From contig JAFNEO010000053.1 in the NCBI GenBank assembly GCA_017886205.1, positions 64,126-128,125 of the forward strand: a stretch of DNA of 64,000 bases. Direction: 5' to 3'. Every line of letters begins with the position of its first letter. Position 1 is the stretch's first letter. The notes beneath the pieces were generated by a model. That model saw nothing but the letters and a program-made list of their open reading frames with translations, ran no database searches and was not told the origin of the DNA. Below, in pieces: positions 9,527 to 45,359 of the stretch. Source of the DNA: Candidatus Aminicenantes bacterium (GTDB lineage: Bacteria; Acidobacteriota; Aminicenantia; Aminicenantales; UBA8522). Position numbers and translations under genes: made by a program.

Positions 9527-9531
9527 TCTCT

Positions 9532-13755: not shown

Positions 13756-13758
13756 GGC

Positions 13759-17445: not shown

Positions 17446-17552
17446 CGGAGTCCCCAATTATAACAAAATTTCGTCATTCGACAAGTGACCCGGCTTGCGA
17501 AGCCGGTTGGATTGTGATAATTAGATAGTCTTTCCTAGCGAGGTGAACGTCT

Positions 17553-18872: not shown

Positions 18873-19259
18873 ATGTATCCAAAAGAATATCGCTTCACCA
18901 AGGATCATGAATGGGTCAAGGTTGAAGGGGACACGGCCACCATCGGAATCACCGATTTTGCCCAGAAACAGCTGGGGGATGTCGTCTATGTCGAGCTTCC
19001 CGCCGTCGGGAAGACCCTCGACGTCCACCAGACTATCGGTGTCGTCGAATCGGTCAAGGCCGTCTCCGACGTCTATTCACCTTTATCCGGAGAGGTCATC
19101 GCCATCAACGAGGACCTCAACAATTCCCCCGAAACGCTCAACCATGACCCCCACGGCAAGGGCTGGATCATCCGCCTGCGCCTCAAGAACAAGTCGGATT
19201 TGGACCAGTTGATGACGGTCGGCGACTACGAGAAATTCCTGGAGGGGCCGGCCTCATGA
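18873..19259 (+). CDS. gcvH: glycine cleavage system H protein
   Basis: 128 aa. Lipoyl-lysine motif ESVKAVSD. AGAGGAGG RBS. Confidence 0.95.
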   Translation: MYPKEYRFTKDHEWVKVEGDTATIGITDFAQKQLGDVVYVELPAVGKTLDVHQTIGVVESVKAVSDVYSPLSGEVIAINEDLNNSPETLNHDPHGKGWIIRLRLKNKSDLDQLMTVGDYEKFLEGPAS

Positions 19260-28056: not shown

Positions 28057-28124
28057 AACGGACAGCTTTTGTCGAACAGCCTGACAGCCGCTTTCTTGCT
28101 TCTAGGTGTCGCCCCGAACCACGC

Positions 28125-29792
28125 CTACCGCAGCGTGCCTTCGTAGTGGGCGGTCAGCTGGCGCTTCCGCACGTCCTCGGGGGTGTAAGAGGGGAGCAGC
28201 ACCGGAGCCATACGGTCCGTCTTGATCCGGGCCTTCTTCAGTTCATTCTCATAGGCAGTGATGTGCTTGAGGGACAGCTTGTCCAGCTTCACGTGTTTTG
28301 TGTATTCCGCCGCGTATTTGCCGGCCCTGCGTCCGAAGACGTTATAGTCGAGGACTGAATTTCCCATCAGCCGGTTCCGGCCGTGAACACCGCCCGATGC
28401 TTCGCCGGCGACATACAGGCCGGGGATGTTCGACTCGCACTTGGCGTTGATCTCGACTCCGCCGTTCTGGTAGTGGAGCGAGGGATAGACGAGCATCGGC
28501 TCTTTGGTGATGTCGATCTGGTAGCGGATAAACTGCCGGACCATAGCCGGAAAGTTCTTGTAAAGGTAGCCGGCGCCCTGGATGATGTCGATGAGCGGGG
28601 AGTCCAGCCAGACACCCCACCGGCCGCTCGGAGTCTGAATCCCATTGTGCCTCTCCAAGCATTCCCGGATAAAGGCGGCGCTCTCGACGTCACGGGGTTC
28701 ACGCGGAAAGACAAACAGTTCACCGTGCCTATTGAGCGGCTGTCCCCCGGCGCCCCGGATCTTCTCCGTGATAAGGAAGCCGGCGATCTGCTCGGGAAAG
28801 CTGGCGCCTGTCGGATGATACTGCACCGAGTCCATGTACATGAGCTTGGCTCCGGCCCGGTAGGCCATGATCAGCCCATCGCCCGTCGCACCGTAGTGGT
28901 TCGTTGTGTCGAAACCGCGAATGTGCAGCCGGCCATAGCCGCCCGTAGCGATGATCGTGGCCTTCGCCCTGACCATGAAATATTCTTCAGTTTCCATGTT
29001 GTAGAGGACACCGCCGGCGCAGTGTCCTTTTTTGTCCATGATGAGCTCGACCGTGGGCATGAACTCGAGGACGGTGATCTCGTCGGGATGGTTGCGGACT
29101 TCGTCCATGAGTGTCCGCATGATTATGGCGCCGGTGTAATCCCGGCAGGAATGCATGCGCTTGCGGGAAGTGCCTCCGCCGTGGAGGACGTACATGGAAT
29201 GATCGGGATTTTTGTCCCAGACGACACCCAGGTCTTCCAGCCACTTGACCACTTCGGGACCATCCTCGGTCATGGCGCGGACGAGGTCCGGCTTGTTGTC
29301 GAAGTGCCCGCCCCCCATCGCATCGAGATAATGACGGGTGGGAGAGTCCTTCGCGGGAACGGCCGCCTGCATCCCTCCCTGCGACATCATCGAGTTGGCG
29401 TCGCCCATCCGGAGCTTGGTGGAAATGATGCTCTTGGCGCCGTTCTGCATGGCGATGATGGCCGCGGCGCATCCGGCGCCTCCGCCGCCGACGATCAGGA
29501 TATCGGTTTCGTAATCGGGTTTGTCGAGGTTGAAGAGCTCCGCTCTGATCCGGCTGTGAGACTCCAGGATATCGGCCACCTCGGTCGTGATTTCTTCGCC
29601 CTTATTGGGCCCGATATGGACAACGCGCCGCGATTCTTTCTTGTAATCGGGATGGAACTTGTTCAGGACGTCATCCCGCTCTTCGGCGGTCATCGGCGCA
29701 AAAACGGGTTTCCCGGATTTTTCGAGCTCGAGCCTTTTCTGCCGGGTTTCGTCTACCAGCTTCAATGAATCTCTCATATATTCTGGATACAT
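28125..29792 (-). CDS. fumarate reductase/succinate dehydrogenase-family FAD flavoprotein (SdhA/FrdA/AprA superfamily, soluble)
   Basis: Start re-set to the ATG at 29792 (AAGGAGAG RBS). GGGGAGCAAA dinucleotide-binding motif and a QYHPTG active-site region. No His at the covalent-FAD position. Confidence 0.75.
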   Translation of the reverse strand: MYPEYMRDSLKLVDETRQKRLELEKSGKPVFAPMTAEERDDVLNKFHPDYKKESRRVVHIGPNKGEEITTEVADILESHSRIRAELFNLDKPDYETDILIVGGGGAGCAAAIIAMQNGAKSIISTKLRMGDANSMMSQGGMQAAVPAKDSPTRHYLDAMGGGHFDNKPDLVRAMTEDGPEVVKWLEDLGVVWDKNPDHSMYVLHGGGTSRKRMHSCRDYTGAIIMRTLMDEVRNHPDEITVLEFMPTVELIMDKKGHCAGGVLYNMETEEYFMVRAKATIIATGGYGRLHIRGFDTTNHYGATGDGLIMAYRAGAKLMYMDSVQYHPTGASFPEQIAGFLITEKIRGAGGQPLNRHGELFVFPREPRDVESAAFIRECLERHNGIQTPSGRWGVWLDSPLIDIIQGAGYLYKNFPAMVRQFIRYQIDITKEPMLVYPSLHYQNGGVEINAKCESNIPGLYVAGEASGGVHGRNRLMGNSVLDYNVFGRRAGKYAAEYTKHVKLDKLSLKHITAYENELKKARIKTDRMAPVLLPSYTPEDVRKRQLTAHYEGTLR

Positions 29793-29803
29793 CGGGCTCT
29801 CCT

Positions 29804-30559
29804 TTACTCCGTATCGCGGGCATAGTATCTCTTCTTCAGCACATCCCGCTTCGCACTCATCAGCTCTTTGTATTCCTTGTCGTATTTTTTCTGCTGGATT
29901 TCTTTCAACCTGGCCTCGAGCTCGGGGCTCTTGGGGGCCAGATAGCGTCCGTAGAGCCTTCGGCCAAGTATTCCGACGTTGTAATGGACGATCTCGGCCG
30001 GACAGCGGATGGCGCAAAGCCCGCAGCTCAGGCAGTCGAAGGAGAGGTCCATGACCTTTTCGATGTCACCCCGGATGGCCGCTTGGATGTAGTCCATGAC
30101 CTCAAGGCTCTGGGGACAGGCTTTGGTGCAGGTGTTGCAGGCCACGCAGCGGAAAATCTCCGGGTAGAGGACCTGGAAGGCGGCAACGTTGGGCTCAAGC
30201 TTCTTGATGTCATAGACCGGCTTTTGGGCGGGAATGACGGGCAGCTGGGACAGCCACATCCCCTCCTGGACGAGGGTCGTGCAGGCCAGACCGGTATAGA
30301 TCTTGTAATCGCCGGGCAAGCGGTAGACCGTCGCGCAGGCGCCGCAAAACCCCTCCCGGCAGCCCGCCCCGCGCTTGATCTGGTAGCCGGCGTATTCGAT
30401 GGCGCCCATGATCGTCGCATCGGCGGGGACGCGGTGGGCCTTGCCCATGATATAGACCATGACCATCTCTTTGGGGGGCTCCTGGGGCTTGGTCTTGACC
30501 GGCCGAGGCTTAGCCGGTGCCGCCTTCTTCTTGGCGGGTGCTTTTTTGTTGGCCATCAT
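29804..30559 (-). CDS. SdhB/FrdB-like iron-sulfur subunit ([2Fe-2S] plus two Cys clusters) with a Lys/Pro-rich N-terminal tail
   Basis: CREGFCGACA plant-type [2Fe-2S] motif, CVACNTCTKACP and CLSCGLCAIRCP. ATGATG start with a GGAGAAGGAGA RBS. N-terminal tail ANKKAPAKKKAAPAKPRPVKTKPQEPPKE. Confidence 0.7.
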   Translation of the reverse strand: MMANKKAPAKKKAAPAKPRPVKTKPQEPPKEMVMVYIMGKAHRVPADATIMGAIEYAGYQIKRGAGCREGFCGACATVYRLPGDYKIYTGLACTTLVQEGMWLSQLPVIPAQKPVYDIKKLEPNVAAFQVLYPEIFRCVACNTCTKACPQSLEVMDYIQAAIRGDIEKVMDLSFDCLSCGLCAIRCPAEIVHYNVGILGRRLYGRYLAPKSPELEARLKEIQQKKYDKEYKELMSAKRDVLKKRYYARDTE

Positions 30560-30590
30560 CTCATCTCCTTCTCCATGGTACCGTCTTCTC

Positions 30591-31415
30591 TCAATACTCT
30601 TGCGGGAGTTTCTTGAGGTCCGCCCAGGAATACACGGGGCCGTCCTTGCAGACATAGTGGAAACCGATGTTGCAGCGGCCGCATTTCCCGATCCCGCACT
30701 TCATCTTGTTTTCGACGGTGGTGTAGATTTGTTCGTCCTCGAACTTGAGGTCTTTAAGATTCTTGATGACGAATTTGATCATGATCGGCGGTCCGCAGGT
30801 AATGGCGATCGTGTTGGCGGGGGAGGGCTTCTTTTCCAGGACGTTGGTCGGCACGAACCCGACGAACTCCTTCCAGTCCGGCTCGGCCACGTCGATCGAC
30901 AGGTGAACCGGCATCTGACCCTTCAGGTCCGCGAGCTCGTCTTTGAAGACGATGTCCTTGGACGTTCGGGCTCCATAGATCAGGCTGAGAGCTCCGAATT
31001 CGCTTTTCCGGAGGAGCGCCGTCTGGACGACCGACCAGAGCGGCGCGAGCCCGATCCCGCCGCCGATGAAGACCAGGTTTTTGCCTTGCCATGCATCCAT
31101 CGGGAACCCGTTGCCGTAGGGGCCTCTGACCCCGATGAGGTCGCCGACCTCCATATCGTGCAGGGCGGCTGTGACCCGGCCCGTCCGGAGGATGCTGAAC
31201 TGCAGATAGTCCTTGATGAGCGGGGAAGAGGAGATCGAGATCATCGCTTCCCCTTTGCCGAAGACCGAGAGCATGGCGCACTGCCCGCAGCGGTAGTCGA
31301 AGCGGGCGCCGTTCGCGAACTCGGTGCGGAAGGTCTTGATCGCCCGGGCGCCGACGACCTCATCCTTGGTCTGAACGATCTTGGCCAGCTGAGGAGTATA
31401 AACATTAAGCTCCAT
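30591..31415 (-). CDS. FAD/NAD(P)-binding oxidoreductase with a C-terminal [2Fe-2S] (PyrK/AsrB/FlxA-like)
   Basis: FNR-like fold with a C-terminal CGIGKCGRCNIGFHYVC cluster motif. AAGGTGAG RBS. Confidence 0.7.
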   Translation of the reverse strand: MELNVYTPQLAKIVQTKDEVVGARAIKTFRTEFANGARFDYRCGQCAMLSVFGKGEAMISISSSPLIKDYLQFSILRTGRVTAALHDMEVGDLIGVRGPYGNGFPMDAWQGKNLVFIGGGIGLAPLWSVVQTALLRKSEFGALSLIYGARTSKDIVFKDELADLKGQMPVHLSIDVAEPDWKEFVGFVPTNVLEKKPSPANTIAITCGPPIMIKFVIKNLKDLKFEDEQIYTTVENKMKCGIGKCGRCNIGFHYVCKDGPVYSWADLKKLPQEY

Positions 31416-32454
31416 GGTCTCTCACCTTGTCCAGGACTTTGATGATGTCGATCCCGACCGGACACAGCGTGATGCAGCGGCCGCAGCCGACACACATGAA
31501 CTTGTCATAGACCTGGATGAAATACTGGAATTTATGCAGCAAACGCTGGCGCAGCCGCGAGGCCTTGTCGGGCCGGGGGTTGTGACCAGAGGAATGCATG
31601 GTGAAATCAGGGAACTGGCAGGTGTCCCAGGTCCGGACTCTTTGACCCTTGAGTGGGGAGGGGGATTCGACCTCATCGCCGATATCAAAGCAATGACAGG
31701 ACGGACAAAGATAGGTGCAGATGCCGCAGCGGAGGCAGCTCATCGACTCCTCATCCCAGAGCGGCGAATCGAACATTCCTTTGAGCTTTTGGGCGATTGG
31801 CCGGGCGTCCTTGAGCTGGCGTCTGATCTTCTTTTCCGACTCGGCGTGGGCGGCTTTGACTTGTTTCTTGGCCTCAGGCTTCGGCTCCTCGAAGAGCGCC
31901 TTGGCGGCGGAGATGAGCTTCTCTCCTTTAGCGGTCATCGACTGGACGTAATACCGGTCGCCGAGGTCGGTCAACAGGAGGTCCAATCCCTCTTCGGAAT
32001 GCGGCGAACCTTCCACCGACGTGCAGAAGCAGTTTTCTGAGGGAGGGGTGGTGCAGGCGAACCCGACCAGAGTGGTCTGGTCCCTGCGTTTCCAGTAATA
32101 GACATCCTTGAATTCGCCTCCGAACACTTCGTCTAGCATCCAGGCGGCCCTGGCCTCGCAAGGCCGGGCTCCGATGATGACTGTGGGTTTGACCTCGGGC
32201 AGGACTTCTTTGATCTCCAGGGTTTCCCGGTTACCCGCCAGAGTCTTGGCGAACTCGAGGAAGACCTCCCGCTGGGGGAAAAGGATCTTTTTGGGGGGGA
32301 GGGTGGTCTGGAGGACATCGAGACTGACCTCTCCGCCGTCGGCCTCGAAATAGTTCCAGCGGCCCTCCTCATCTTTTCGGGGGATGTAGACCCTCCAGGA
32401 GTCCAGCTTCTTGACCCATTGGGGAAAGGACTTTTTGGCGAGTATCTTTTCCAT
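31405..32454 (-). CDS. 4Fe-4S dicluster protein (AsrA/HydB/FlxB-like)
   Basis: CLRCGICTYLCPSC and CVGCGRCITLCP motifs. Size and architecture match anaerobic sulfite reductase subunit A-like proteins. Confidence 0.6.
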   Translation of the reverse strand: MEKILAKKSFPQWVKKLDSWRVYIPRKDEEGRWNYFEADGGEVSLDVLQTTLPPKKILFPQREVFLEFAKTLAGNRETLEIKEVLPEVKPTVIIGARPCEARAAWMLDEVFGGEFKDVYYWKRRDQTTLVGFACTTPPSENCFCTSVEGSPHSEEGLDLLLTDLGDRYYVQSMTAKGEKLISAAKALFEEPKPEAKKQVKAAHAESEKKIRRQLKDARPIAQKLKGMFDSPLWDEESMSCLRCGICTYLCPSCHCFDIGDEVESPSPLKGQRVRTWDTCQFPDFTMHSSGHNPRPDKASRLRQRLLHKFQYFIQVYDKFMCVGCGRCITLCPVGIDIIKVLDKVRDHGA

Positions 32455-32458
32455 CGTC

Positions 32459-33490
32459 TTACCTGATGAAATCTTGAGGATCTTCGTCCCGGAAACAGGA
32501 GATGAGGGCCGGAAGGGCGGGGTCGAACCCGACCTCGTAGCCGAAGAGCTCTTTGGCCTCCTTCTCCAGCTTCTTGTTCAGAAACCGCAGGGGGATGTCG
32601 AGCGGGCAGGCCCTTTCGCATTCGCCGCAGTCGATGCAGCGGCCGGCGAGGTGGATGGCCCGGACGAGGTGGTAGACCAGGTTCTCGGAGGACTCCGCCG
32701 ACCTCTGGATCCAGTGGATCCGCTGGGCTTTCTCATCCGCCGTCGTATCGGCGGTCACGGCCAGGTTGATGCTGTCCACTACGCACTCATCGCAGTAGCA
32801 CATCGGGCAGGCCGAGCGGCAGGCGTAGCAGCGGATGCATCTGTCGAGCTGTTCTTTCCAGAAACTCGAGCGATCGGCGGCCGAGAGGGACTCGATCTTT
32901 TCCAGGGAGCCGAAGGGCTTGTCTAGAGGCCTCTTGGTTTTCTCACCGCTCAGGAGGTCATAGATCACCGGGAAATTGGCTTTGCACTCAAGGCATCTCT
33001 CGGCCAGGAGCTCTTCCGCGGCCATCTCGATCTTCCCGTCCTCGGTGGTGACGACGAAACGGTCCTGGGCGTCGACTTCAACCCTCTTAGCCTTTTTCCC
33101 CGCCAGCTTCTTGGCCAGCTTGGCATCATCGACAACGCCCATCTTTTCGCAGGACACGCCCAGGATGTAGACATCACTGCGGTCGATAAACTTTTCCTGC
33201 AGGAGGACGACGACGGCCCGGCTGTCGCATCCCTTGACCATGATTCCCACCGGCCGCTTGTCGGGCTGCTTCTGTCTCGCTTTCCGTCTCTTCTCATCGA
33301 CCAGGAAGCGGACGAGGTTGTGGACGCAGGTGGGGTCCCAGACGAGCTTGTCCACGTCCTCGGGTTTCTTGATGAAGAGGGGAGCGGCCAGCCAGCCATT
33401 GCTGCCGGCGCCGTAGCCGATGATGTATTTGACCTTGCCTTCGCGGAGCAGTTTTTTAGCTTCCTCTTTGAGGTCCTCGATCTTAGCCAT
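32459..33490 (-). CDS. 4Fe-4S dicluster protein (FlxC/HydB-like)
   Basis: Start re-set to the ATG at 33490 (MAKIEDLKEE...), overlapping the MvhD-like stop as TAATG. CIRCYACRSACP and CIDCGECERACP motifs. Confidence 0.55.
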   Translation of the reverse strand: MAKIEDLKEEAKKLLREGKVKYIIGYGAGSNGWLAAPLFIKKPEDVDKLVWDPTCVHNLVRFLVDEKRRKARQKQPDKRPVGIMVKGCDSRAVVVLLQEKFIDRSDVYILGVSCEKMGVVDDAKLAKKLAGKKAKRVEVDAQDRFVVTTEDGKIEMAAEELLAERCLECKANFPVIYDLLSGEKTKRPLDKPFGSLEKIESLSAADRSSFWKEQLDRCIRCYACRSACPMCYCDECVVDSINLAVTADTTADEKAQRIHWIQRSAESSENLVYHLVRAIHLAGRCIDCGECERACPLDIPLRFLNKKLEKEAKELFGYEVGFDPALPALISCFRDEDPQDFIR

Positions 33491-33912
33491 TAGGGATTTC
33501 TCCTCAGCTTGGTTTGAGGCCCGAGGGGTTTCAGTTCCTTGACGAAATCCTTGATGATTTGGGTGAACTTGGTCCCTTCGGCCGCCGAAACCCAGGACAT
33601 TTGGAACCTCTGAGTTTCGAGGCCGACGTATTCCAGGAGCTTTTTGACGAGGTTCAGCCGACGCCTGGCGTAATAATTCCCCTTGATATAGTGGCAGTCG
33701 CCCGGATGACAGCCGGAGACGAGAACCCCGTCGGCGCCCTTGTTGAAGGCCGAGAAAATGTAGAGCGGGGATACGCTGCCGGAGCACATGACTTGGATGG
33801 GGACAACGTTGGGAGGGTATTCCATCCGGGAAACGCCGGCCAGGTCGCTCCCGGCCGAGGAACACCATTTGCACAGAAAGGCGACGATCCGCGGTTCGTA
33901 ATCCTCCGCCAT
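33490..33912 (-). CDS. mvhD: methyl-viologen-reducing hydrogenase delta subunit-like protein (MvhD/FlxD)
   Basis: About 141 aa. Cys pattern CKWCSSAG...CSGSVSP...SGCHPGDCHY is typical of MvhD. The ATG at 33912 lies 2 nt after the hdrA stop. Confidence 0.8.
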   Translation of the reverse strand: MAEDYEPRIVAFLCKWCSSAGSDLAGVSRMEYPPNVVPIQVMCSGSVSPLYIFSAFNKGADGVLVSGCHPGDCHYIKGNYYARRRLNLVKKLLEYVGLETQRFQMSWVSAAEGTKFTQIIKDFVKELKPLGPQTKLRRNP

Positions 33913-33914
33913 GA

Positions 33915-35864
33915 TTAGCCTCCGAGACACGCGTTGATCATTTCGGCAACCTGCTGCTGAGTCAGGTTTTTGACCTGGATGGCCGAGCGCAGGCAGGTGG
34001 CCGTGCAGGTGCCGCAGCCCTCGCAGAGGACCTCGTTGACTTCGACCTTCCCGTCCTTCAGAGTAAGGGCATCATAGGGGCAGACGGCGACACACATCCC
34101 GCATCCCGTGCACAGGTTGCTGATAACCTTGGCTACGGTCGGCGAATGGAACAGCCTATCTTGAGAAAGGATGGCCACGGCCTTGGCCGCGGCGCCGCTG
34201 GCCTGGGCGACGGCTTCAGGTATATCTTTGGGGGCCTGGGCGGCTCCGGCTAAAAACATCCCCGCTGTCACGCTCTCGACCGGCCGCAACTTGGGATGGG
34301 CCTCGGCCAGAAAGCCGTCCTTGTCCAGGGCCAGCTTGAGCTTCTTGGCCAGTTCCTGGGCGCCCGTGGAAGGCCGCATGGCCTGAGCCAGGACGACCAT
34401 ATCGGCGGCGATCTCGATACTCCTGCCGGTTAGGGTGTCGACTCCCCAGACCATGATCTTGCCCTTTTCCTCGAAGACCTTGGAGACCTTGCCGCGGAGG
34501 TAGACGACCCCGTCCTCTTCCACTGCCCGCTGGACGAACTCCTCGTATCCCTTGCCGCCCGAGCGGATGTCGATGTAGAAGATGTAGGCCTGGCCGTCGT
34601 GGACATGGTGTTTGTAGAGCATGGCATGTTTGGCCGTGTACATGCAGCAGATCTTCGAACAGTAGGCGCAATGGTTCTCGGGGTCGCGCGACCCTGAGCA
34701 CTGGATGAAGACGACCTCTTTGGGCTCCTTGTGGTCGGACGGCCGCAGGATCTGACCCATGGTGGGGCCGGAGGCCGAGCATAGTCGCTCGAACTGGAGA
34801 CCGTCGAGGACGTCGGCGTACTTGCCGAACCCGTACTCGGCCATGTTCTCCTTGTCGTAGAGGTCATAGCCGGTGGCCACGATTATGACGCCCACTTCCG
34901 CTTCGATGATCTCAGGCTTCTGGTCGAAGTCGATGGCTTTTGGGTTGCAGACGTCGGCGCACTTGCCGCAGGCGATGGTCGTGAACGGGTCGGGACAGTT
35001 CTTGTCGTCGAGTGTGTAGGATGCCGGGATGGCCTGAGGGAAGGGGATATAGATCGCCCGCCGTCCGGTCAAACCGAGGTCGAACTCGTTGGGCACAACG
35101 ATCGGGCAGACCTTGGTGCATTCATCGCAGAGGGTGCATTTTGCCGGGTCGACATAGGTGGGCTTCTTCAGGATCTTGACCTTGAAGTTGCCGACGTAAC
35201 CGCTGACGTCCTGGACTTCACTGTATGTCATCAGCTTGATCTTGGGGTGCTTGGAAACCTCCACCATCTTTGGCGTCAGGATACATTGCGAGCAGTCCAG
35301 GGTGGGGAAAGTTTCCGACAGCTGGATCATGTGGCCCCCGACAGAGGGGTTCCTCTCTACCAATATCACTTCGAACCCGGTGTTGGCGATGTCGAGCGCG
35401 GCCTGGAGCCCGGATATACCGCCTCCGACGACGAGGGCCCGCCGGGTCACCGGTACGCTCAGAGCGTCCAAGGACTCGTTCTGGCGGACTTTCTCCACTG
35501 CGGACCGCGCAATCTTGGTCGCTTTTTGCGTGGCCTTAGGCTTGTCCTTATGGACCCAGCTGCACTGCTCGCGGATGTTGGCGATTTCGCAGCGGAAGCT
35601 GTTGAGACCGGCGCGCTTGGCGGCATTACGGAAGGTCGTCTCGTGGAGGTTGGGCGAGCAGCAGGCGACAACGACGCCGTCCAGCTTTTTCTCCCTGATG
35701 GCCTGCTCGATCAGGTTTTGACCCGGATCGGAGCACATATAGACATAGTCCTCGGCGTGAACCACACTGGGGTGCTTGGCTAGCTCCTCGGCGACTTTCT
35801 TGACGTCCACCGTGCCGGCAATGTTGATGCCGCAGTGGCAGATAAAGACTCCAGTCCGTTTCAT
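33915..35864 (-). CDS. hdrA: heterodisulfide reductase subunit A (FAD, multi-FeS)
   Basis: N-terminal VFICHCGINIAG, GGGISG FAD motif, an internal four-Cys insertion and a C-terminal 2x[4Fe-4S] ferredoxin domain. 649 aa. ATGA overlap with the upstream kor gamma gene. Confidence 0.9.
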   Translation of the reverse strand: MKRTGVFICHCGINIAGTVDVKKVAEELAKHPSVVHAEDYVYMCSDPGQNLIEQAIREKKLDGVVVACCSPNLHETTFRNAAKRAGLNSFRCEIANIREQCSWVHKDKPKATQKATKIARSAVEKVRQNESLDALSVPVTRRALVVGGGISGLQAALDIANTGFEVILVERNPSVGGHMIQLSETFPTLDCSQCILTPKMVEVSKHPKIKLMTYSEVQDVSGYVGNFKVKILKKPTYVDPAKCTLCDECTKVCPIVVPNEFDLGLTGRRAIYIPFPQAIPASYTLDDKNCPDPFTTIACGKCADVCNPKAIDFDQKPEIIEAEVGVIIVATGYDLYDKENMAEYGFGKYADVLDGLQFERLCSASGPTMGQILRPSDHKEPKEVVFIQCSGSRDPENHCAYCSKICCMYTAKHAMLYKHHVHDGQAYIFYIDIRSGGKGYEEFVQRAVEEDGVVYLRGKVSKVFEEKGKIMVWGVDTLTGRSIEIAADMVVLAQAMRPSTGAQELAKKLKLALDKDGFLAEAHPKLRPVESVTAGMFLAGAAQAPKDIPEAVAQASGAAAKAVAILSQDRLFHSPTVAKVISNLCTGCGMCVAVCPYDALTLKDGKVEVNEVLCEGCGTCTATCLRSAIQVKNLTQQQVAEMINACLGG

Positions 35865-36493
35865 TGTTTTGCCTTTCGCGGCGGATTTTTCTTGATATCA
35901 GGCAGCGGCTGATTTTTCAGGGGCTTCAGCTCTTTTTGGGGCTTTTCTTTTTCTTTGGCCAAGAGCTCGACCCCGTAGTCATAGCCTTTCTCGAACGCTC
36001 GGATGTTGAGCTCTAAGAATCTCTTGGGGACCAGGCCGGGCAGAGCTTTTTTCATGGCCTCGGGGGAGACCACCCGGCTGATGCCGGTGAAAAACCCGAG
36101 CATGACCAGGTTGGCGAAGATGCGGTTCCCCATCTCCTCGGCGAACCGGGTTGAGGGGACGCCGTAGGATTTGATCTGGCCGCGCGCCGGCTTCAGCCGA
36201 ACTAGGTCCGTATCATAAATCAGGATCCCGTCCGCACGGAGATCCGGCTCGTATTTCTCGTAGGCGTCCTGGGACATGGAGACGAGGATTTCCGGACGCG
36301 TGATGTACGGATAGAGGACGCGGTCTTCTGAGATCACGACCTGGGAGCTGCAGGCGCTTCCGCGGGCTTCCGGGCCGAAGCTCTGGGTCATGGTCCCGAA
36401 TTTATTATCAAAGAGCGAAACGGCCTTGCCGGTGATCAAACCGCAGCGGATGATCCCCTGGCCGCCATAGCCGGAAAAACGGATCTCGTTCAT
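35861..36493 (-). CDS. korC: 2-oxoacid:ferredoxin oxidoreductase gamma subunit
   Basis: GYGGQGI motif typical of POR/KOR/VOR gamma subunits. ATGA overlap with the beta subunit. Confidence 0.8.
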   Translation of the reverse strand: MNEIRFSGYGGQGIIRCGLITGKAVSLFDNKFGTMTQSFGPEARGSACSSQVVISEDRVLYPYITRPEILVSMSQDAYEKYEPDLRADGILIYDTDLVRLKPARGQIKSYGVPSTRFAEEMGNRIFANLVMLGFFTGISRVVSPEAMKKALPGLVPKRFLELNIRAFEKGYDYGVELLAKEKEKPQKELKPLKNQPLPDIKKNPPRKAKQ

Positions 36494-37359
36494 GGTTTCA
36501 CTCCATAGGGCACGTATTTATCGCCCAGGGTCTTCTGGAGATGAGTGTTCATGCATTCGAGGTAGGTAGGCTTGTCCCTGTCCACGAACTTGCCGACGAT
36601 GATCTTTCCCTGGAAATCGATGGGCACAGTGCGCGTGTCGGCACCGTGCCTCATCTCGGATTTGTCATAGTAATATTTGAGCAGGTTTAATCCGTCGCCC
36701 AGCCTGTTCCGTCGGGCGTAGAGAGTGACGCAGGGTGTGATGACCTCGATAAAGGAGAACCCTCTCTTGACCAGCGCCTCTTGGATGGACTTGGTGACCC
36801 GGCGGATATGGAGGGAGGTCCAACGGGCGACATAACTTGCGCCGCAGGCGTCGGCGAGGTAGGCCAGGTTGAATGGGTATTCAAAGTTCCCATAGGGCGC
36901 CGTCGAAAGGTTGGCCGTAAGCGGGGTCGTGGGTGCCACCTGACCTCCCGTCATGGCGTAATTGAAATTGTTGACGCAGATGACCAGGATGTCCATATTC
37001 CGGCGGGCGGCATGGATGAGATGGTTGCCGCCGATGCCGGCGATATCCCCGTCGCCGCTGAAGACGACCACCTTGAGCTCGGGGTTGGCCAGCTTGAGCC
37101 CTGTGGCAAAGGGAATGGCGCGGCCGTGGGTGCTGTGGAACGAATCGAACTTGACGTATCCGGCCACGCGTCCCGTGCATCCGATGCCGGAGACGACAGC
37201 GAGCTTGTTGAGGTCGAGCTCGCTCTTCTTCAGCGCCTCGACGAACGAGGTGACCACTGTCCCTATGCCGCAGCCGGGGCACCAGATGTGGGGGATGCGG
37301 TCCATCCGGAGGAAATCCTCCATCGGGTTTCTTTCTTCTGGGCGTTCCTCTTCTTTCAT
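36490..37359 (-). CDS. korB: 2-oxoacid:ferredoxin oxidoreductase beta subunit (TPP-binding)
   Basis: WCPGCG motif and the GDGD..IGGNH thiamine-diphosphate-binding region. Confidence 0.9.
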   Translation of the reverse strand: MKEEERPEERNPMEDFLRMDRIPHIWCPGCGIGTVVTSFVEALKKSELDLNKLAVVSGIGCTGRVAGYVKFDSFHSTHGRAIPFATGLKLANPELKVVVFSGDGDIAGIGGNHLIHAARRNMDILVICVNNFNYAMTGGQVAPTTPLTANLSTAPYGNFEYPFNLAYLADACGASYVARWTSLHIRRVTKSIQEALVKRGFSFIEVITPCVTLYARRNRLGDGLNLLKYYYDKSEMRHGADTRTVPIDFQGKIIVGKFVDRDKPTYLECMNTHLQKTLGDKYVPYGVKP

Positions 37360-38522
37360 CGGGCTGCCTCCTTGATGGCTTTCAGGATGTCGTCGGGATC
37401 GTGGACCCAGCCGCCGCAGTGGGGGACGCCGATGGCCGGGGCCCGGCCGAAGGCGCAGCGCTCGACCTCGCGCCGGATCTGTCCCAGGTTGATCTCGGGC
37501 ACAACAAAGGCCTTGACTTTCTTGGCCAGTTCTTTGATCCGGTCTTCGGGAAAAGGCCAGACCGTGACCAGCCGGAGGGTCCCCACTTTGATGCCGGCTT
37601 TGCGGGCCTCCTGGACGGCCTTGACCGAAACACGTGAAGTGATCCCGTAGGAGATGACCACAATCTCGGCGTTGTCGGTCTGGTCCTCCCGGTAGTCGAT
37701 GATTTTAGGAGCGTTCTTGGTGATTTTATCGACGAGATGGTGGACGCACCAGTCCTGGGCTTCGGCGTTTATCGCCGGGTAGCCGCGCTCATCATGAGTC
37801 AGGCCGGTCGTGTGGAAACGGTAGCCGTCGCCCGCCTTGACCATGAAAGGGACCAGGTCTTTGTCGGGCTTGTAGGGGAGGTATTTTTGTCTGGGTCCCA
37901 CGTACCATTTTCGCTCGACCACTTCGATCTGGTCGGCGGGCGGGATGACCACTTTTTCGTGCATGTGGCCCACACATTCGTCGGTCATGATGAAGACGGG
38001 AACCCGGTAGGTCTCCGCCAGATTAAAGGCTTTGATGGTCAGGTCGAAGCACTCCTGCGGTGAATCAGGGGAGAGGGCGATGATCTCATAGTCGCCATGC
38101 GAGCCGAATTTGACCTGCAACATGTCCGCCTGCCCGACCAGCGTCGGGAGCCCGGTGGACGGGCCGCCCCTCTGGACGTTGGCGATGACGAGCGGCGTCT
38201 CCATCATGGCCGCGAGGCCGATGTTCTCCATCATCAAGGAGAACCCCGGTCCGGAGGTGACCGTCATCGACTTTTGCCCGCCCCAGGAAGCACCGATCAG
38301 GGCCGTGATCGAGGCGATTTCGTCCTCCATCTGAATAAAGATTCCCCCGACGAAGGGGATGCGCTCGGCGAAGCGTTCGGCGGTCTCTGTAGAGGGCGTG
38401 ATCGGATATCCGGCGAAAAATCGGCAACCGGCCGCCAGACTGCCCTCGGCGATGGCGAAGTCGCCGTCGAGGTAGTGAGCTCCGGTCAGGACTCCTTTAG
38501 GGTCTGCTTTCAGTTTTCTCAC
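37356..38522 (-). CDS. korA: 2-oxoacid:ferredoxin oxidoreductase alpha subunit
   Basis: GYPITPS..E motif. GTG start at 38522 with a strong AAGAGGAGGAAG RBS; it overlaps the delta gene by 26 nt. Confidence 0.9.
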
Positions 38523-38775
38523 CTTCTTCCTCCTCTTTTTTGAGAGTGACGAATATGGCGAATTCCGGGCAGATGGCTTCGCAGAGCTGGCAATAGATGC
38601 ACTCTTCCTCTTTTACGACCCGGGGCGCATGGTAGCCTTTTTTGTTGTACTCCTCGGAGAGCTCGAGGACGTCGCGGGGGCAGTACTCGACACAAAAGCC
38701 GCAGCCTTTGCATCTCTGCTTGTTGATGTGGATATCGCCCTTTTTTGCCTTGAGATTGCCGAAGTGGATGGTCAT
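38497..38775 (-). CDS. korD: 2-oxoacid:ferredoxin oxidoreductase delta subunit (2x[4Fe-4S] ferredoxin)
   Basis: [12 protein letters not shown] and [12 protein letters not shown] motifs. 92 aa. Confidence 0.8.
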
Positions 38776-38782
38776 GGTTCCC

Positions 38783-39661
38783 TCAGATCAGTCCCTTCTG
38801 CCGCAGGAGCGGTTGGGGGTCGACATAGTGGAGATCAAGACGCAGGGACTCTTCTCCGCAGCCCATGGCGATGGCCAAGAGCTGGGTGAAATAGAGGATC
38901 GGGATCTTTTTGAACTCGGAGTACTTCTTGGCCGTTTCCTTCTGCCGGTGGTCGAGGTTGAAGGCGCAGAGCGGACAGCTGACGGAGACGACCTCCGCTC
39001 CCCGGCCGCGGGCCGAAGTCAGGATGCTGAATGTCCGGTCGGCGACGGTCTCCGGCTTGTCCACCGTCAGGTAGGCGCCGCAGCACTCCGTCTTATAGGG
39101 AAAGTCGACGGGGTTTGCCCCGAGGACGGCCATCAGGTCATCGAGGACGGTCGGGTTCTCCATGTCGTCGAGGCCGATCTCTTTGGGCCGGACAAGTAGG
39201 CAGCCGTAATAGCTGGCCACTTTAAGGTTGTGGAGAGGCTTTTTAACCTTCTTGCCGATCGCCTCGAACTTGACGTCCTCCCGGAGCAACTCCAGCAGGT
39301 GCCGGACTTTAACGTCTCCCCGGTAGGCGATCTTCTCCTCGTCCATGAACTTGTGGATCTTCTGCAGGCTGTCCGGGTCAGCCTTGATCCTTTCGTTGAC
39401 CCGTTTGAGGGTGTTGTAACACATCGCGCAGAGGGTCATGACCGAATCCGCCTGCTCTTCCTTCACCCGGATCAGGTTGCGGACTGAAGCCAGATGGTGC
39501 ATCAGGTCGTCGGTGGTCAGGGAGTAGACGGTCCCGCAGCAGTTCCAGCGCCGGAGCTCTTGGACGTCGACCCCGAGCTCGCGCAGCGCGCAGAGAGCGG
39601 AGTCCTCGAAGTTCTTGGCGTTGCTCTTCAGTGTACAACCCGGATAGTAGCTAACTTTCAT
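38783..39661 (-). CDS. hdrB: heterodisulfide reductase subunit B (two CCG domains)
   Basis: Two cysteine-rich CCG repeats (CxnCCGxmCxxC: YPGC...CCGTVYSL...CAMC and YYGC...CCGAY...CPLC). Confidence 0.9.
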
Positions 39662-39720
39662 GGGGATTCATTCTCCGGATGAAGTCGGATGATCGTCGCA
39701 TTTGGTATGATCAACGAAAA

Positions 39721-40128
39721 TCACGAGGTGAATTTTCGAAAGCTGCTGATCAGAGCGATGGCCGGGACGCTAGCCTTATCCTCGGCGCTGAGCTTGGGAA
39801 CTTCAACATGATCCTTCCTCTTGCGCAGCAGGACCTGGCGCACGGCCTCCATCACTTCGGCTATCTTTATCCCCTTGGGGCAGCGGACGTTGCAGGTGTA
39901 GCACGAGGCACAAATCCAAACCGACTTTGCTTCGAGCAACTCCTCCTTGAAACCGAGCTGGGCATAGCGGATGACCTGGTTGGGAAGGATGTCCATCTCA
40001 GCGACTGCCGGACAGCCGGCCGAGCATTTACCGCACTGATAGCAGGCCAGCAGCTTCTGGCCGCTGATCTCCTCGATCTTCCTCACAAAGTCGTCCCTGA
40101 TCTTCTTCTTGGAGAGGATGGTTCTCAT
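39721..40128 (-). CDS. hdrC: heterodisulfide reductase subunit C (2x[4Fe-4S])
   Basis: CYQCGKCSAGCP and CASCYTCNVRCP motifs. AAAGGA RBS. Confidence 0.85.
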   Translation of the reverse strand: MRTILSKKKIRDDFVRKIEEISGQKLLACYQCGKCSAGCPAVAEMDILPNQVIRYAQLGFKEELLEAKSVWICASCYTCNVRCPKGIKIAEVMEAVRQVLLRKRKDHVEVPKLSAEDKASVPAIALISSFRKFTS

Positions 40129-40205
40129 TTTTTCCTTTTCTCTTTCCGGCTTGAAAGGATCGATACCCGATATAAAGATGATATTCTAGGCCAAAATGAC
40201 CCTTC

Positions 40206-40234
40206 AGTAAATCACAATTTTTTTTTCCTGTCAA
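40206..40234 (-). promoter_or_regulatory. candidate promoter of the hdr-kor-flx-sdh operon (TTGACA-N17-TTTACT)
   Basis: A -35 TTGACA (reverse complement of tgtcaa at 40229-40234) overlaps the stop of the upstream hydrolase gene. The -10 is weak (4/6 match). Confidence 0.25.
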
Positions 40235-41016
40235 GAAATCGAAGTCGGAGAACGCTCGCCGAAAAAGACGATGATATCATGGATGTCTTCTTGGGCAAAT
40301 CGGCTCTGGAAATAGTCTTGGCTGACCTCCAGCGGGTAGTGGTCGAAGCCGGCCCGGACGACCTTCAGACGGTCGATCTTTTTCTCGAAGAGCTCCAGCA
40401 AAGGGCCGTTTTTAATGGTCCTGTCGAAATGACTGAGGATGAGGACATAGGGCAGGTTTTGGAAGCGGCAGGGTTGACGGTGGGTAAGGATGATGCGAGC
40501 GGTTTCAAAAAAAGTCCGCCCCTCCATCTCGTTCAAGAGAGTTTCGATTCGGTCGGCCGGATAATCGCTGTACCAGTGAAAGACCCGGTGAAACAAACGA
40601 TGATTCCAGATCTTCAAGGGCAGGTCGAAAGCGAGGGTCAATCGAACAAGAAAAGAGTAGGTGGACTTCTTGACCAGACCTAAGTTGAGCCAACGAGAGT
40701 CCAGGAAGGGCGTGATGGCCACCACTCCCTTGCATCGTTCGCCAGGGTCCAGGTGGCTGATGACGGCGAACCCGAAAGAGATGCCGCCCAGGAGATAGCT
40801 GTTCAGGTCCAGGTCATCGATCCGGCGCCGAACATAGGCCGCGTAGTTCTCAAGAGTGACCTCGGAAAGCGGCGGGATATCACGGACGAACCCGGGGAGG
40901 TCGATGAAATGGACGCGGAAGAAGTTGCCCAGGTAATCGATCAGGCCCCGGAGGACCAGGCTGTTCGTTAAGAACGCGTTGACGAGCACCAAGTTCTCTT
41001 TGCGAATCGAGGTCAC
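40231..41016 (-). CDS. alpha/beta hydrolase fold protein
   Basis: GGISFG (GxSxG) nucleophile elbow. GTG start (no ATG available). Confidence 0.5.
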   Translation of the reverse strand: MTSIRKENLVLVNAFLTNSLVLRGLIDYLGNFFRVHFIDLPGFVRDIPPLSEVTLENYAAYVRRRIDDLDLNSYLLGGISFGFAVISHLDPGERCKGVVAITPFLDSRWLNLGLVKKSTYSFLVRLTLAFDLPLKIWNHRLFHRVFHWYSDYPADRIETLLNEMEGRTFFETARIILTHRQPCRFQNLPYVLILSHFDRTIKNGPLLELFEKKIDRLKVVRAGFDHYPLEVSQDYFQSRFAQEDIHDIIVFFGERSPTSIS

Positions 41017-41065
41017 AGGTCGGCTCCAGAAAAGCCCTCTCTTTTAGCACAGCGGGAAAGGGAAG

Positions 41066-43210
41066 TCAATCTGAGGCCGGACGGTGTTTCGGCCGGGTGA
41101 GGAGAAAAAGAAGCCCTATGGCATTGAGGAGGATGACCGAATCGATGACCCGGGACAATCCGGCCAGAGGGATGAGGAGAGAGGACGTCACGAGTGCTCC
41201 GATAAAAGACCCGACGAGGTCGAGGCCATAGCCGCGCCCATAGTCCGCACGGACGCGGAGATAAAGCCGATTGGAGACAACAAACAAGCCTCCGCCGAGG
41301 ATTCCTAAGAAAAACAAGATGAGAAAAGCGAGGACCTCGGGGAGTCTTGCCGGAAGAGCCATCCGGAAAAGACCGAGAAGAAGCATAAACCCGATTTGGA
41401 TGGCCGCCAGCCATCTGTAAGTCGGGCGGCTGATCCGGGTGCCCAAGAGGGCGCCCAGAAACAGCCCGAGCATGAAGGTGGACAGCAGCAAGGCGATTCG
41501 CCCATAGAGAAAGCCATAGAGCGCCTGGAACCAGATGAGGAGGACGATCTCCGCCACGATCGTCGTCAGACCCATTACGGCTAGGGGAAGCAAGCTGTAT
41601 ATGGCCTCTCCTTTTCTAGCGCGCAGGACCGGGAGGAGCAAGACGAAGAGAAAGAGAGGCAGCCCGAGAAGCCAAGACACGGGAACCCTAGAAAAAAAGT
41701 GCAGGATCGCTGCCCCGGGTCCCCGAAATTGAGTGCTCCAGAGAGAGGCGTTCAGAAAGAAACTCACTGGGGCAAAGTCCGAATTGAGCCGAGGCGAGCC
41801 CGAGGCCAGCATGCCTTCGAGATACCGGACACGCAGCGCATGGAGGCGAGACTGAAGAGACCGGGCCCCGAGGTATCGGGTTGACAAGGCGAGAGAGGCG
41901 ATCCGGCGGCTGAGCTCTTGGGGGTCAAGCGTCAATGGCGCAGTAGAAGCTAAAAAAATACTCCGATCTCCGGGCACAACCCGAACCTCCGGGAATACTC
42001 TGGATAGAGTGTAGTATAGAGAGGAGAGGAACTGCTGGAGCTCCGGGCCGATGACAGTCTCCGAAGAAGGGATGGGAAAGGACAGGATGCCGTCAGAGCT
42101 GAGGTGACGCTGGGCCAGGAGGAAAAACTCAAGGGTATAATACCTGTTGACCTGGGCTGTGGCGGGCTCGGGAAGGTTGAGGAGCATGACTTGGTATTTT
42201 TCCTCGGTCCGCTGGAGGAATGTTCGTCCGTCCTGAAAGATGATGCGGACTCGGGCGGCGGCTAGGTTAGCCTTATCCTCATCTCCCAAGAAAACCCGGG
42301 ATAGGTTGATGATCTCAGGGTCGAGCTCGACGTAATCGATCTTCGCCCCGGGGTATTTGAGCAGCTCTCCGAGAGCACCGCCCGGCCCTCCGCCGATGAG
42401 GAGGATTCGGCGGGCTTCTGGATTTTGGAGCATAGCGAAATGAACGGATTCCTCGGCCGCTGCCGGATCGGGCACGGAATAGACGGGCGAGTTGTTGCTG
42501 TAAAGGGAGAGTTGTTCCTTGGCCCGGATGAGTTGAAGTCGACCATAGCGGGTATCGCGTGTGATGAGGAGCTGGAACGGTTTCCAGTAAGCCCTTTGGC
42601 TGGGAAGGTCGGCCAACCAGAATCCGCAAAGAAGGATCATGATGCCCAGCGCCCAAATAAGAGAAGGCTTTTCGTGGTCCGTCCAAAAGATCAAAAGCGC
42701 GATTGTCCCGGCGATGACCGTGGCCGTGGCCCAGGACGAGGAGGAAAGCGTCATCAATAGATAGATGAGAGGGCCGGCCGCCACGGCGCCCAAGGATTCC
42801 AGGATATAAACCCGGCTGATATCCCCTGCCTGCCGGCTCACATTGATGACGAACAAGGCTCCCAGGGGAAAGCCGATCAGGAGACAGAGCCCAAAGGACA
42901 TAATGATGATCGGGGACAGCCCCACAATTTCGCCGGGCAAGACATGGAATAGGAAGCGTGAGAACCTAACCGCGAGGAGGGCGAAGGGGAACAGGAAAAT
43001 GACAACGAGATAGAGAGAAGTCTGGTTGGGAAAGGACTTCGCTTTCCCGGCCGCCAGGCTTCCCAACCCCACCCAGAGGAGCCAGGAAGCGAGGATGATG
43101 CCCAGCGTCAGCTCGTTCCCTGAAAAATAGGCAGCGAATTCCCGGAGCAGTAAGATTTGGAAGGAAGTCGCCAGCAACCCGAGAAGAAAGGCGGGGAGGT
43201 CTTTTCTCAA
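41066..43210 (-). CDS. polytopic membrane protein fused to a spermidine/spermine synthase-like (aminopropyltransferase, class I SAM-MTase fold) domain
   Basis: N-terminal half is a multi-TM domain. The C-terminal half carries LLIGGGPGGA...VDYVELDPEIINLSRVF...LLNLPEP, typical of spermidine synthase. The start is uncertain: TTG at 43210 (TTGA coupling to the radical SAM stop) or TTG at 43249. Confidence 0.55.
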   Translation of the reverse strand: MRKDLPAFLLGLLATSFQILLLREFAAYFSGNELTLGIILASWLLWVGLGSLAAGKAKSFPNQTSLYLVVIFLFPFALLAVRFSRFLFHVLPGEIVGLSPIIIMSFGLCLLIGFPLGALFVINVSRQAGDISRVYILESLGAVAAGPLIYLLMTLSSSSWATATVIAGTIALLIFWTDHEKPSLIWALGIMILLCGFWLADLPSQRAYWKPFQLLITRDTRYGRLQLIRAKEQLSLYSNNSPVYSVPDPAAAEESVHFAMLQNPEARRILLIGGGPGGALGELLKYPGAKIDYVELDPEIINLSRVFLGDEDKANLAAARVRIIFQDGRTFLQRTEEKYQVMLLNLPEPATAQVNRYYTLEFFLLAQRHLSSDGILSFPIPSSETVIGPELQQFLSSLYYTLSRVFPEVRVVPGDRSIFLASTAPLTLDPQELSRRIASLALSTRYLGARSLQSRLHALRVRYLEGMLASGSPRLNSDFAPVSFFLNASLWSTQFRGPGAAILHFFSRVPVSWLLGLPLFLFVLLLPVLRARKGEAIYSLLPLAVMGLTTIVAEIVLLIWFQALYGFLYGRIALLLSTFMLGLFLGALLGTRISRPTYRWLAAIQIGFMLLLGLFRMALPARLPEVLAFLILFFLGILGGGLFVVSNRLYLRVRADYGRGYGLDLVGSFIGALVTSSLLIPLAGLSRVIDSVILLNAIGLLFLLTRPKHRPASD

Positions 43211-44328: not shown

Positions 44329-44352
44329 GATCTTCTCGATTTCTCGTACGTA

Positions 44353-45249: not shown

Positions 45250-45359
45250 CCTGATATCAAGGTACAATTCTCTTCACAACCTGTCAACTTCAGGACGCAG
45301 CGATCCGCTGGCGAATTTGATAAACGGGTCGTTTTGTATTAAATTAATCGGGAAGAAAG

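Follow-up and report, generated by a model that had tools for sequence, protein, structure and literature searches.

Gene clusters that combine a 2-oxoacid:ferredoxin oxidoreductase (OFOR) with a heterodisulfide reductase have been described in tubeworm symbionts. Rubin-Blum, Dubilier and Kleiner (2019, mSphere, PMC6315080) gave the order frdB-frdA-hdrC-hdrB-korD-korA-korB-korC-hdrA-flxD-flxC-flxB-flxA-aclB-aclA-idh for the Escarpia symbiont and found the cluster also in other tubeworm symbionts, in Thioflavicoccus mobilis and in a metagenome-assembled genome (MAG) from an aquifer. Their proposal, shared by Mitchell et al. (2024, Nat Microbiol, PMC11636981), is that NADH electrons are bifurcated by Flx-Hdr, one branch leading to a thiol:fumarate-reductase-like enzyme and the other to oxoglutarate oxidoreductase. 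The cluster is co-expressed, intergenic regions included, in the Riftia symbiont Endoriftia (PMC11636981), and a 2023 preprint noted it in Bipolaricaulia. Here we analyse a window of 64,000 nucleotides (64 kb) from contig JAFNEO010000053.1 of a Candidatus Aminicenantes bacterium, which shares 13 gene families with the cluster of the tubeworm symbionts and T. mobilis and in which korDABC likewise lies between hdrB and hdrA. The fumarate-reductase pair stands at the 3' end of the operon in the window, whereas in the symbiont it is upstream of hdrC; the genes of the reverse tricarboxylic acid (rTCA) cycle that adjoin the symbiont cluster (aclBA, idh, acn, mdh) are absent from the window and the 10 kb beyond it. 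The hosts differ as well, Aminicenantes being a phylum described as fermentative and the symbiont cluster belonging to sulfur-oxidizing autotrophs. Our literature search found no paper noting the cluster in Aminicenantes. The arrangement and its model are already published (2019) and the function of the cluster is still hypothetical; what is added here is a new phylum, a different place for the fumarate-reductase pair, a setting without neighbouring rTCA genes and a set of natural variants.

We propose that the kor genes are the central block of a single co-transcribed 13-gene operon whose products would work by the bifurcating mechanism set out below, an explanation that, taken as a whole, we regard as evenly balanced between right and wrong. 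Gene calls on the identical public contig (L001) and our own domain scans agree on the extent: 13 genes on the minus strand, to which all operon coordinates below refer, over 12 kb (window 40128..28125) in the order hdrC-hdrB-korDABC-hdrA-mvhD(flxD)-flxC-flxB-flxA-sdhB-sdhA. Intergenic gaps are all at most 59 nt, the widest being that from hdrC to hdrB, and many genes overlap; 102 nt lie 5' of hdrC, and the gene after sdhA is convergent. An initial annotation of this DNA had placed korDABC between hdrB and hdrA and described three ATGA start/stop overlaps. Reading of the minus strand, the list of open reading frames (ORFs) and Pfam and NCBIfam identities confirm the placement, and the overlaps lie exactly where it put them, at 37359-37356 (korA/korB), 36493-36490 (korB/korC) and 35864-35861 (korC/hdrA). 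Its kor coordinates were right, but the unit comprises 13 genes, and hdrC, mvhD, flxCBA and sdhBA had escaped it, as had the prior publication.

The four kor genes encode a full set of OFOR subunits. The 92-aa delta subunit, KorD (38497..38775), starts 7 nt past the hdrB stop and carries two 4Fe-4S motifs of the type CxxCxxCxxxCP (Cys 22/25/28/32 and 59/62/65/69). The alpha subunit, KorA (37356..38522, 388 aa), combines POR_N and PFOR_II domains (PF01855, 236 bits; PF17147, 76 bits); its gene overlaps korD by 26 nt and, just as first annotated, begins with GTG behind a strong ribosome-binding site inside korD, the Shine-Dalgarno-like AAGAGGAGGAAG at 38526..38537, whose GGAGG core lies 6 nt ahead of the start codon. 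In the beta subunit, KorB (36490..37359, 289 aa), the TPP_enzyme_C domain (PF02775, 116 bits) retains the thiamine pyrophosphate (TPP) motif GDGD..NN, and Cys 27, 30, 61 and 210 are present, which, from knowledge of OFOR beta subunits rather than from a structure-based alignment, we take to be the expected proximal 4Fe-4S ligands. The gamma subunit, KorC (35861..36493, 210 aa), is a POR-domain protein (PF01558, 107 bits) with a Lys/Pro-rich tail at about residues 176-210. The alpha, beta, gamma and delta domains and motifs of a four-subunit delta-alpha-beta-gamma OFOR are thus all in place, and the cofactor motifs of the operon proteins, Cys and TPP motifs included, are all intact. The KorC tail (window 35861-35965, about 35 aa) is probably dispensable, because it is missing from the korC ORFs (182-190 aa) of five related loci that were checked; the charged, low-complexity KorD tail (window 38497-38540) ends in KKEEEEGEK.

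How general is the arrangement? A KorA scan with one genome per species returned 80 loci, whose arrangements were read from tblastn of all 13 proteins. The closest loci (KorA 75-89% identity) belong to Candidatus Aminicenantes MAGs, and in about 40 species (species-level MAGs), wherever a contig has sufficient length, the gene order is complete. The narrower order hdrB-korDABC-hdrA is conserved in about 55 species-level genomes and survives both relocation of sdhBA and loss of flxCBA, and the gene set co-occurs across three rearrangements and at least two phyla. The synteny comparison that the initial annotation had called for therefore shows the arrangement recurring in dozens of related genomes. 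Junctions are conserved too, beyond what chance would give, each counted over the loci that carry it: the hdrB-korD gap is 7 nt in 39/59, the korD/korA overlap is 26 nt in 50/80 with a korA GTG start in 53/80, and the korA/korB overlap is 4 nt in 69/80. The korB/korC overlap is 8 nt in 29 and 4 nt in 19 of 76 loci, and korC and hdrA overlap by 4 nt in 24/57, with mostly short gaps in the remainder. In a rough, midpoint-rooted neighbour-joining tree of KorA+KorB, all hdrB-kor-hdrA loci group together as one clade, in which a proteobacterial subclade is sister to the Aminicenantes subclade; Kor-only loci and the variant C loci described below fall outside it, apart from one truncated sequence.

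These data bear on one alternative, namely that the kor genes came to lie between hdrB and hdrA by chance and are functionally unrelated to Hdr. Nothing recommends it except that operons can be mosaics, and we attach hardly any probability to it: order and junction spacing are conserved in the approximately 55 genomes and across phyla, the loci so arranged group as a single clade, Endoriftia co-expresses the cluster (PMC11636981), and in further phyla kor has links to Hdr-type modules of other kinds. The initial view that the tight coupling speaks against a passenger insertion holds on the same grounds. A fixed Kor:Hdr stoichiometry or a physical complex is a hypothesis. At the two junctions with hdr there is no non-coding room, because hdrB and korD are separated by a 7-nt gap and korC and hdrA overlap by 4 nt. 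Candidate internal terminators and promoters between kor and hdr were rejected as evidence, being weak consensus matches that all lie within coding sequence. A simple terminator scan of window 27000-42000 gave 32 hairpin-plus-T-run matches, where shuffled sequences gave 14.6 +/- 4.3. Almost all are weak and intra-coding, and the excess is probably a composition effect.

Three natural variants depart from the window's arrangement. In variant A (seven loci: L028, L032, L037, L044, L045, L048 and L053) the order is hdrCB-korDABC-hdrA(-mvhD)-sdhBA and flxCBA is missing; in L028, the only one of the seven with annotated downstream ORFs, a gene for a PilZ protein and glyS follow and no electron-donor module adjoins. 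Variant B, sdhBA-hdrCB-korDABC-hdrA-mvhD-flxCBA, occurs in five MAGs, four labelled Proteobacteria and one (the L061/L068 lineage) Thiodictyon; its loci (L054, L059, L061, L068, L071) share 71-76% identity with the window in KorA, 64-70% in HdrA and 67-73% in SdhA. A Rhodocyclaceae locus (L079) has the variant B core, and no sdhBA match was seen there by tblastn. The gene for the beta subunit of ATP-citrate lyase, aclB, follows flxA in L054, in L071 and in contig L082. Between sdhA and hdrC, four loci (L059, L061, L068, L071) have about 550 nt, and the published gene list shows no gene there. Variant C (Zixibacteria, KSB1, WOR-3 and others; KorA 68-70%) has korDABC either by itself or with an Hdr-type module of another kind behind it. 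In a locus labelled KSB1 (L072, 12645-19431) these genes are a GltD-like NAD(P)H oxidoreductase/Fer4/MvhD fusion, an HdrD-like protein composed of Fer4_8 and two CCG domains, and HdrA-MvhD; in one labelled Cytophagia (L064, 12901-20047) they are a 956-aa HdrA-like flavoprotein, an HdrD-like protein and separate hdrC- and hdrB-like genes. Fumarate reductase genes are absent from the Hdr-type sets of both loci, and tblastn matches suggest similar sets in some Zixibacteria loci. The link between Kor and Hdr appears to extend beyond the published cluster. Many MAG records titled 'uncultured Eubacteriales' or 'Clostridia' (L003-L005, L013-L016, L023-L024 and other TPA_asm records) carry the operon with KorA identities of 75-89%, similarly high identity in the other operon proteins and Aminicenantes synteny; their taxonomic labels are probably wrong.

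Around the kor block, the Hdr and Flx proteins have the anatomy that would be expected of an NADH-linked bifurcating enzyme. HdrC (39721..40128, 135 aa), the product of the first gene, has two CxxCxxCxxxCP motifs. HdrB (38783..39661, 292 aa) contains two CCG domains with all 10 Cys of two non-cubane 4Fe-4S sites, and shows similarity to SdhE of methylmenaquinol:fumarate reductase as well as to the C-terminal half of methanogen TfrB. HdrA (33915..35864, 649 aa) is homologous over its full length to the electron-bifurcating flavoprotein of methanogen HdrABC and aligns end to end with that of the Methanothermococcus bifurcating enzyme (PDB 5ODC; 733 bits, residues 3-638). Its gene is followed after 2 nt by mvhD/flxD (33490..33912, 140 aa; FlpD domain, 180 bits), which overlaps by 1 nt the gene for an FlxC-like Fe-S protein (32459..33490, 343 aa; Fer4). 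The FlxB-like Fe-S protein (31405..32454, 349 aa; Fer4_22) is a homologue of sulfhydrogenase beta and AsrA, and the FlxA-like NAD(P)H-binding flavoprotein (30591..31415, 274 aa) joins NAD_binding_1 to a DHODB Fe-S domain (DHODB_Fe-S_bind). The set is that of FlxABCD-HdrABC-type enzymes, with FAD and multiple 4Fe-4S sites in HdrA, two CCG domains in HdrB, two 4Fe-4S motifs in HdrC and FlxA-D all alongside, and the cofactor-binding anatomy is complete for a chain from NADH through FlxA, FlxB/C and MvhD to the FAD of HdrA.

The last two genes encode a fumarate-reductase-like pair. The SdhB/TfrB-N-like subunit (29804..30559, 251 aa) has a 2Fe-2S motif (C67, 72, 75, 93) and two CxxCxxCxxxCP motifs; domain and motif scans found no CCG domain in it, the operon's CCG domains residing on the separate HdrB. 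HdrB aligns with TfrB 262-479 and the SdhB-like protein with TfrB 22-88, so that together they correspond by homology to the two halves of what is a single polypeptide in methanogens. The SdhA/TfrA-like flavoprotein (28125..29792, 555 aa), encoded by the last gene, keeps the catalytic His/Arg/His/Arg (equivalents of E. coli FrdA His 232, Arg 287, His 355 and Arg 390) and the fumarate-site motifs QYHPTG, PRD, HYxxGG and HGxNRL. Its best NCBIfam match is TfrA (334 bits), far below the equivalog cut-off and with the last ~120 positions of the model uncovered. Asn replaces the His that binds FAD covalently (E. coli FrdA H44), as it does in 41/41 orthologues; covalent FAD is required for succinate oxidation and not for fumarate reduction. 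An N-terminal extension of 96 aa is conserved at full length in the orthologues, while the usual SdhA/FrdA C-terminal domain is absent. The extension has no Pfam match and its best PDB sequence match has E = 0.19, so that a circular permutation, in which it would be the relocated C-terminal domain, found no support; a docking element is one possibility. The SdhB-like protein begins with a low-complexity, Lys/Ala/Pro-rich stretch of about 32 aa (window 30464-30559).

How might these proteins work together? Each step of the mechanism is one that we infer. FlxA would oxidize NADH and pass the electrons through FlxB, FlxC and MvhD to the FAD of HdrA, which would bifurcate every electron pair. The high-potential electron would travel by HdrC and HdrB to the SdhB-like and SdhA-like proteins and reduce fumarate to succinate, a contact between HdrB and SdhB like that of the two halves of TfrB allowing HdrC/HdrB to feed the reaction. 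The low-potential electron would leave through the ferredoxin domains of HdrA for KorD, directly or via ferredoxin, and drive KorABC as a 2-oxoglutarate synthase that converts succinyl-CoA and CO2 to 2-oxoglutarate. Two NADH would in this way give one succinate and one 2-oxoglutarate, and this 1:1 output would be the ratio needed by the linear path from fumarate over succinate and succinyl-CoA to 2-oxoglutarate. In Aminicenantes the module could work in the reductive branch of the TCA cycle, or in a complete reverse cycle should other parts of the genome encode citrate cleavage; in an anaerobic heterotroph its role may be no more than to make 2-oxoglutarate for glutamate by way of the reductive branch.

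The direction of this scheme is the opposite of the one first suggested, in which Kor was a direct, dedicated ferredoxin-reducing partner of Hdr. Standard potentials are -320 mV for NADH, about +30 mV for fumarate/succinate and about -500 to -520 mV for succinyl-CoA + CO2/2-oxoglutarate, so that the reductive reaction would yield about -30 kJ per 2 NADH and the reverse would be uphill by an equal amount. The non-covalent FAD, the NADH-input module FlxABCD, these potentials and the published model favour the reductive direction, as does the correspondence of HdrB and the SdhB-like protein to the two halves of TfrB, and on these grounds the initial suggestion is probably backwards: Kor probably runs as a synthase fed by Hdr-Flx, not as a ferredoxin reducer for Hdr. 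An oxidative scheme would have Kor oxidize 2-oxoglutarate or another 2-oxoacid and deliver electrons to HdrA, for confurcation with electrons from succinate or a thiol to NADH, or for reduction of a disulfide. OFORs are reversible, oxidation of glutamate-derived 2-oxoglutarate would be plausible in Aminicenantes, which are described as peptidase-bearing fermenters (PMC7245137), and citrate-cleavage genes are absent nearby (the window and 10 kb beyond). However, moving electrons from succinate (+30 mV) and 2-oxoglutarate (about -500 mV) onto NAD+ would be uphill by some 30 kJ per 2 NADH under standard conditions, the covalent-FAD His tied to succinate oxidation is missing in all 41 flavoprotein orthologues, and the closest rearranged relatives adjoin ATP-citrate lyase, a marker of the reverse TCA cycle. 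We consider an oxidative role improbable.

What weighs against a reductive, bifurcating module that ends in fumarate and 2-oxoglutarate? The substrate of Kor is inferred from family scores, that is, from similarity. For all four subunits the highest scores come from 2-oxoglutarate-type or generic 2-oxoacid models, with the models for pyruvate (POR), 2-oxoisovalerate (VOR) and aromatic (IOR) substrates far lower. The 2-oxoglutarate oxidoreductase (OGOR) equivalog scores nevertheless all lie below their cut-offs (alpha 385/579, beta 236/364, gamma 79/216, delta 79/125 for score/cut-off), and the only NCBIfam cut-off passed is that of NF006412, the generic '2-oxoacid:acceptor oxidoreductase subunit alpha' (557 vs 411 bits). 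In a prediction of substrate from the subunit sequences, as the initial annotation had recommended, the OGOR models are the best specific match for all four subunits, but none attains equivalog status. The top PDB match is 1YD7, a P. furiosus '2-keto acid' enzyme whose entry does not state the substrate, and the paper on the H. pylori 2-oxoglutarate oxidoreductase (PMC12307629) yielded no usable 2-oxoglutarate contact residues for a comparison of specificity. The generic model above its cut-off, the equivalogs below theirs and the unspecified substrate of 1YD7 could all fit an embedded OFOR for pyruvate, 2-oxoisovalerate or an aromatic 2-oxoacid, with the module serving some other reductive carboxylation or a fermentation step. 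Against this, the 2-oxoglutarate models outrank POR, VOR and IOR by large margins in the four subunits alike, the nearest solved chains of defined substrate are H. pylori OorA (287 bits) and OorB (205 bits), with a PFOR alpha chain at 55 bits, and the pairing with fumarate reductase, plus ATP-citrate lyase in relatives, fits 2-oxoglutarate. Another substrate therefore seems to us to have little probability.

Further points against the bifurcating model concern its donor, its acceptor and its setting. NADH is not always the donor encoded in cis, because seven related loci are without flxCBA. The Kor-Hdr link does not require fumarate, because other phyla pair korDABC with a different Hdr-type module without fumarate reductase. 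Neither ATP-citrate lyase nor other TCA genes occur in the window or within 10 kb beyond it, and published Aminicenantes genomes are described as those of anaerobic fermentative heterotrophs (PMC7245137). Literature and PDB searches found no purified or assayed enzyme and no structure of such a complex, the PDB matches for the Hdr proteins being methanogen Hdr complexes only. A chimeric KorC+HdrA query against 5.8 billion proteins revealed no genuine Kor-Hdr fusion. The sole match spanning KorC and HdrA (P0003) is an assembly artefact from contig L082 (ENA contig_37606), where a proteobacterial-type cluster at 6700-20850, with aclB and idh after flxA, has nearly every gene fragmented by frameshifts; this artificial 'fusion' is a caution for inference from fusions. 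Lastly, HdrB retains all 10 Cys of the disulfide-reducing clusters, and because of this a thiol/disulfide carrier may be the real high-potential acceptor.

This last point leads to the main rival, which keeps the reductive chemistry and dispenses with a supercomplex. Flx-Hdr would reduce free ferredoxin and a disulfide (a small thiol or a DsrC-like protein), both of which would diffuse to Kor and to fumarate reductase, and the operon would signify only co-regulation and matched amounts. The HdrB cysteines, which belong to clusters of the kind that reduce heterodisulfide in methanogens, speak for it, as do the lack of a natural Kor-Hdr fusion and the fact that KorD is an ordinary two-cluster delta subunit like that of the free-standing H. 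pylori OorDABC; the authors of the 2019 model themselves listed the indirect route by carriers as an alternative (PMC6315080). The operon, though, holds none of the carrier genes, be they for ferredoxin, for a DsrC/TusE-like or for a thioredoxin-like protein, the SdhB-like protein is without the thiol-oxidizing CCG domains of TfrB and so has no evident thiol site of its own unless HdrB supplies one, and the interleaved gene order is stricter than co-regulation alone would need. We rate diffusible carriers as unlikely. The bifurcating model can also be taken to its conclusion, with the 13 proteins as one soluble particle and a new class of bifurcating enzyme that has NADH as donor, fumarate and a hard-wired 2-oxoglutarate synthase as acceptors and no free ferredoxin or thiol carrier; in Aminicenantes this would amount to CO2 fixation on NADH only, and the symbiont cluster would have come from a donor related to Aminicenantes-like bacteria. 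This larger claim is speculative, and we hold it tentatively as something that may well prove wrong.

What are the implications of such a module? Energetically, the reverse TCA cycle has its bottleneck at the carboxylation of succinyl-CoA, which depends on ferredoxin, and how sufficiently reducing ferredoxin is obtained without reductants at the level of hydrogenase is a question that such a complex would address. If the model is true, the answer is an economical one, in which an NADH-only complex pays for the carboxylation with the very exergonic fumarate reduction of its own pathway, and fumarate and 2-oxoglutarate synthase would be a new acceptor pair for electron bifurcation. If the proteins do form one particle, its role in Aminicenantes would be that of a biosynthetic reductive branch or part of an unrecognized reverse-TCA capacity. 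The window adds that the cluster is the conserved core operon of a whole, widespread, uncultured phylum and that it exists without adjacent citrate-lyase genes. Moreover, the natural variants without Flx or without fumarate reductase could guide experiments.

Outside the operon the window carries housekeeping genes (for tRNA ligases, for glycine cleavage, for the synthesis of pyrimidines and FAD, and for a hybrid histidine kinase), and the following 10 kb are similar. A promoter-like site, TTTACT-17-TAGAAT (40183..40211, minus strand), lies within the 102 nt before hdrC and is a candidate operon promoter, a consensus match only and not evidence of function. The 5' neighbours on the same strand (window 40231-45267) encode a DUF362 protein, an AmmeMemoRadiSam-type radical SAM enzyme, a 727-aa spermidine-synthase-like protein and an alpha/beta hydrolase. 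In loci L028 and L044, ORFs that match these in size and order precede the operon and are apparently the same neighbours, which have no evident tie to the operon. A plus-strand ORF at 39679..40683 was dismissed as spurious, since it overlaps hdrC on the opposite strand and has zero family matches.

How does the Aminicenantes operon stand beside the other known systems? The kor set shares its subunits and its delta-alpha-beta-gamma gene order with H. pylori OorDABC (PDB 8YS5; PMC12307629), in which one cluster lies in beta and two in delta (PMC12307629). The H. pylori enzyme is free-standing, works oxidatively with flavodoxin or ferredoxin and is encoded outside any hdr operon, whereas kor in the window is embedded in one. 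Methanothermobacter thiol:fumarate reductase TfrAB (Heim et al. 1998, as cited in PMC6315080) includes in TfrA the best match of the window's flavoprotein, which has the active-site residues for fumarate reduction; compared with TfrA, it is without the last ~120 model positions and has the extra 96-aa N-terminal segment. None of the Tfr matches comes near its equivalog cut-off. TfrB has its own C-terminal CCG domains, whereas in the window these are on the separate HdrB and the SdhB-like protein is without them. The cluster content of TfrB is reportedly the same as the one 2Fe-2S and two 4Fe-4S motifs of the SdhB-like protein. Hydrogenobacter thermophilus reportedly has a soluble, five-subunit NADH-dependent fumarate reductase that serves the rTCA cycle and has extra Hdr-like/GltD-like subunits (Miura et al. 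2008); its genes are reportedly scattered, with no OFOR part, and it is not known to bifurcate.

Closer in their electron-transfer core are two further systems. Seven protein families of the window are shared with the NADH dehydrogenase/heterodisulfide reductase FlxABCD-HdrABC of Desulfovibrio vulgaris (Ramos et al. 2015, as cited in PMC6315080), and bifurcation of NADH electrons has been proposed for both. The Desulfovibrio operon contains neither an OFOR nor a fumarate reductase and is linked to alcohol dehydrogenase, its proposed acceptors being free ferredoxin and DsrC. To our knowledge, NADH-dependent reduction of ferredoxin and disulfide by Desulfovibrio Flx-Hdr has only been inferred, from genetics. 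The methanogen Hdr supercomplexes (Mvh-Hdr, 5ODC; Fdh-Hdr-Fmd, 7BKB family) have close homologues of HdrA, B, C and MvhD (HdrA 733 bits, HdrB 137-158 bits). Their structures have been solved experimentally, whereas the complex of the window is hypothetical; their donor is H2 or formate, their high-potential acceptor CoM-S-S-CoB and their CO2-fixing partner formylmethanofuran dehydrogenase, not an OFOR. In Fdh-Hdr-Fmd the low-potential arm is reportedly wired to a CO2-fixing enzyme, a precedent for the logic that we propose here for Kor.

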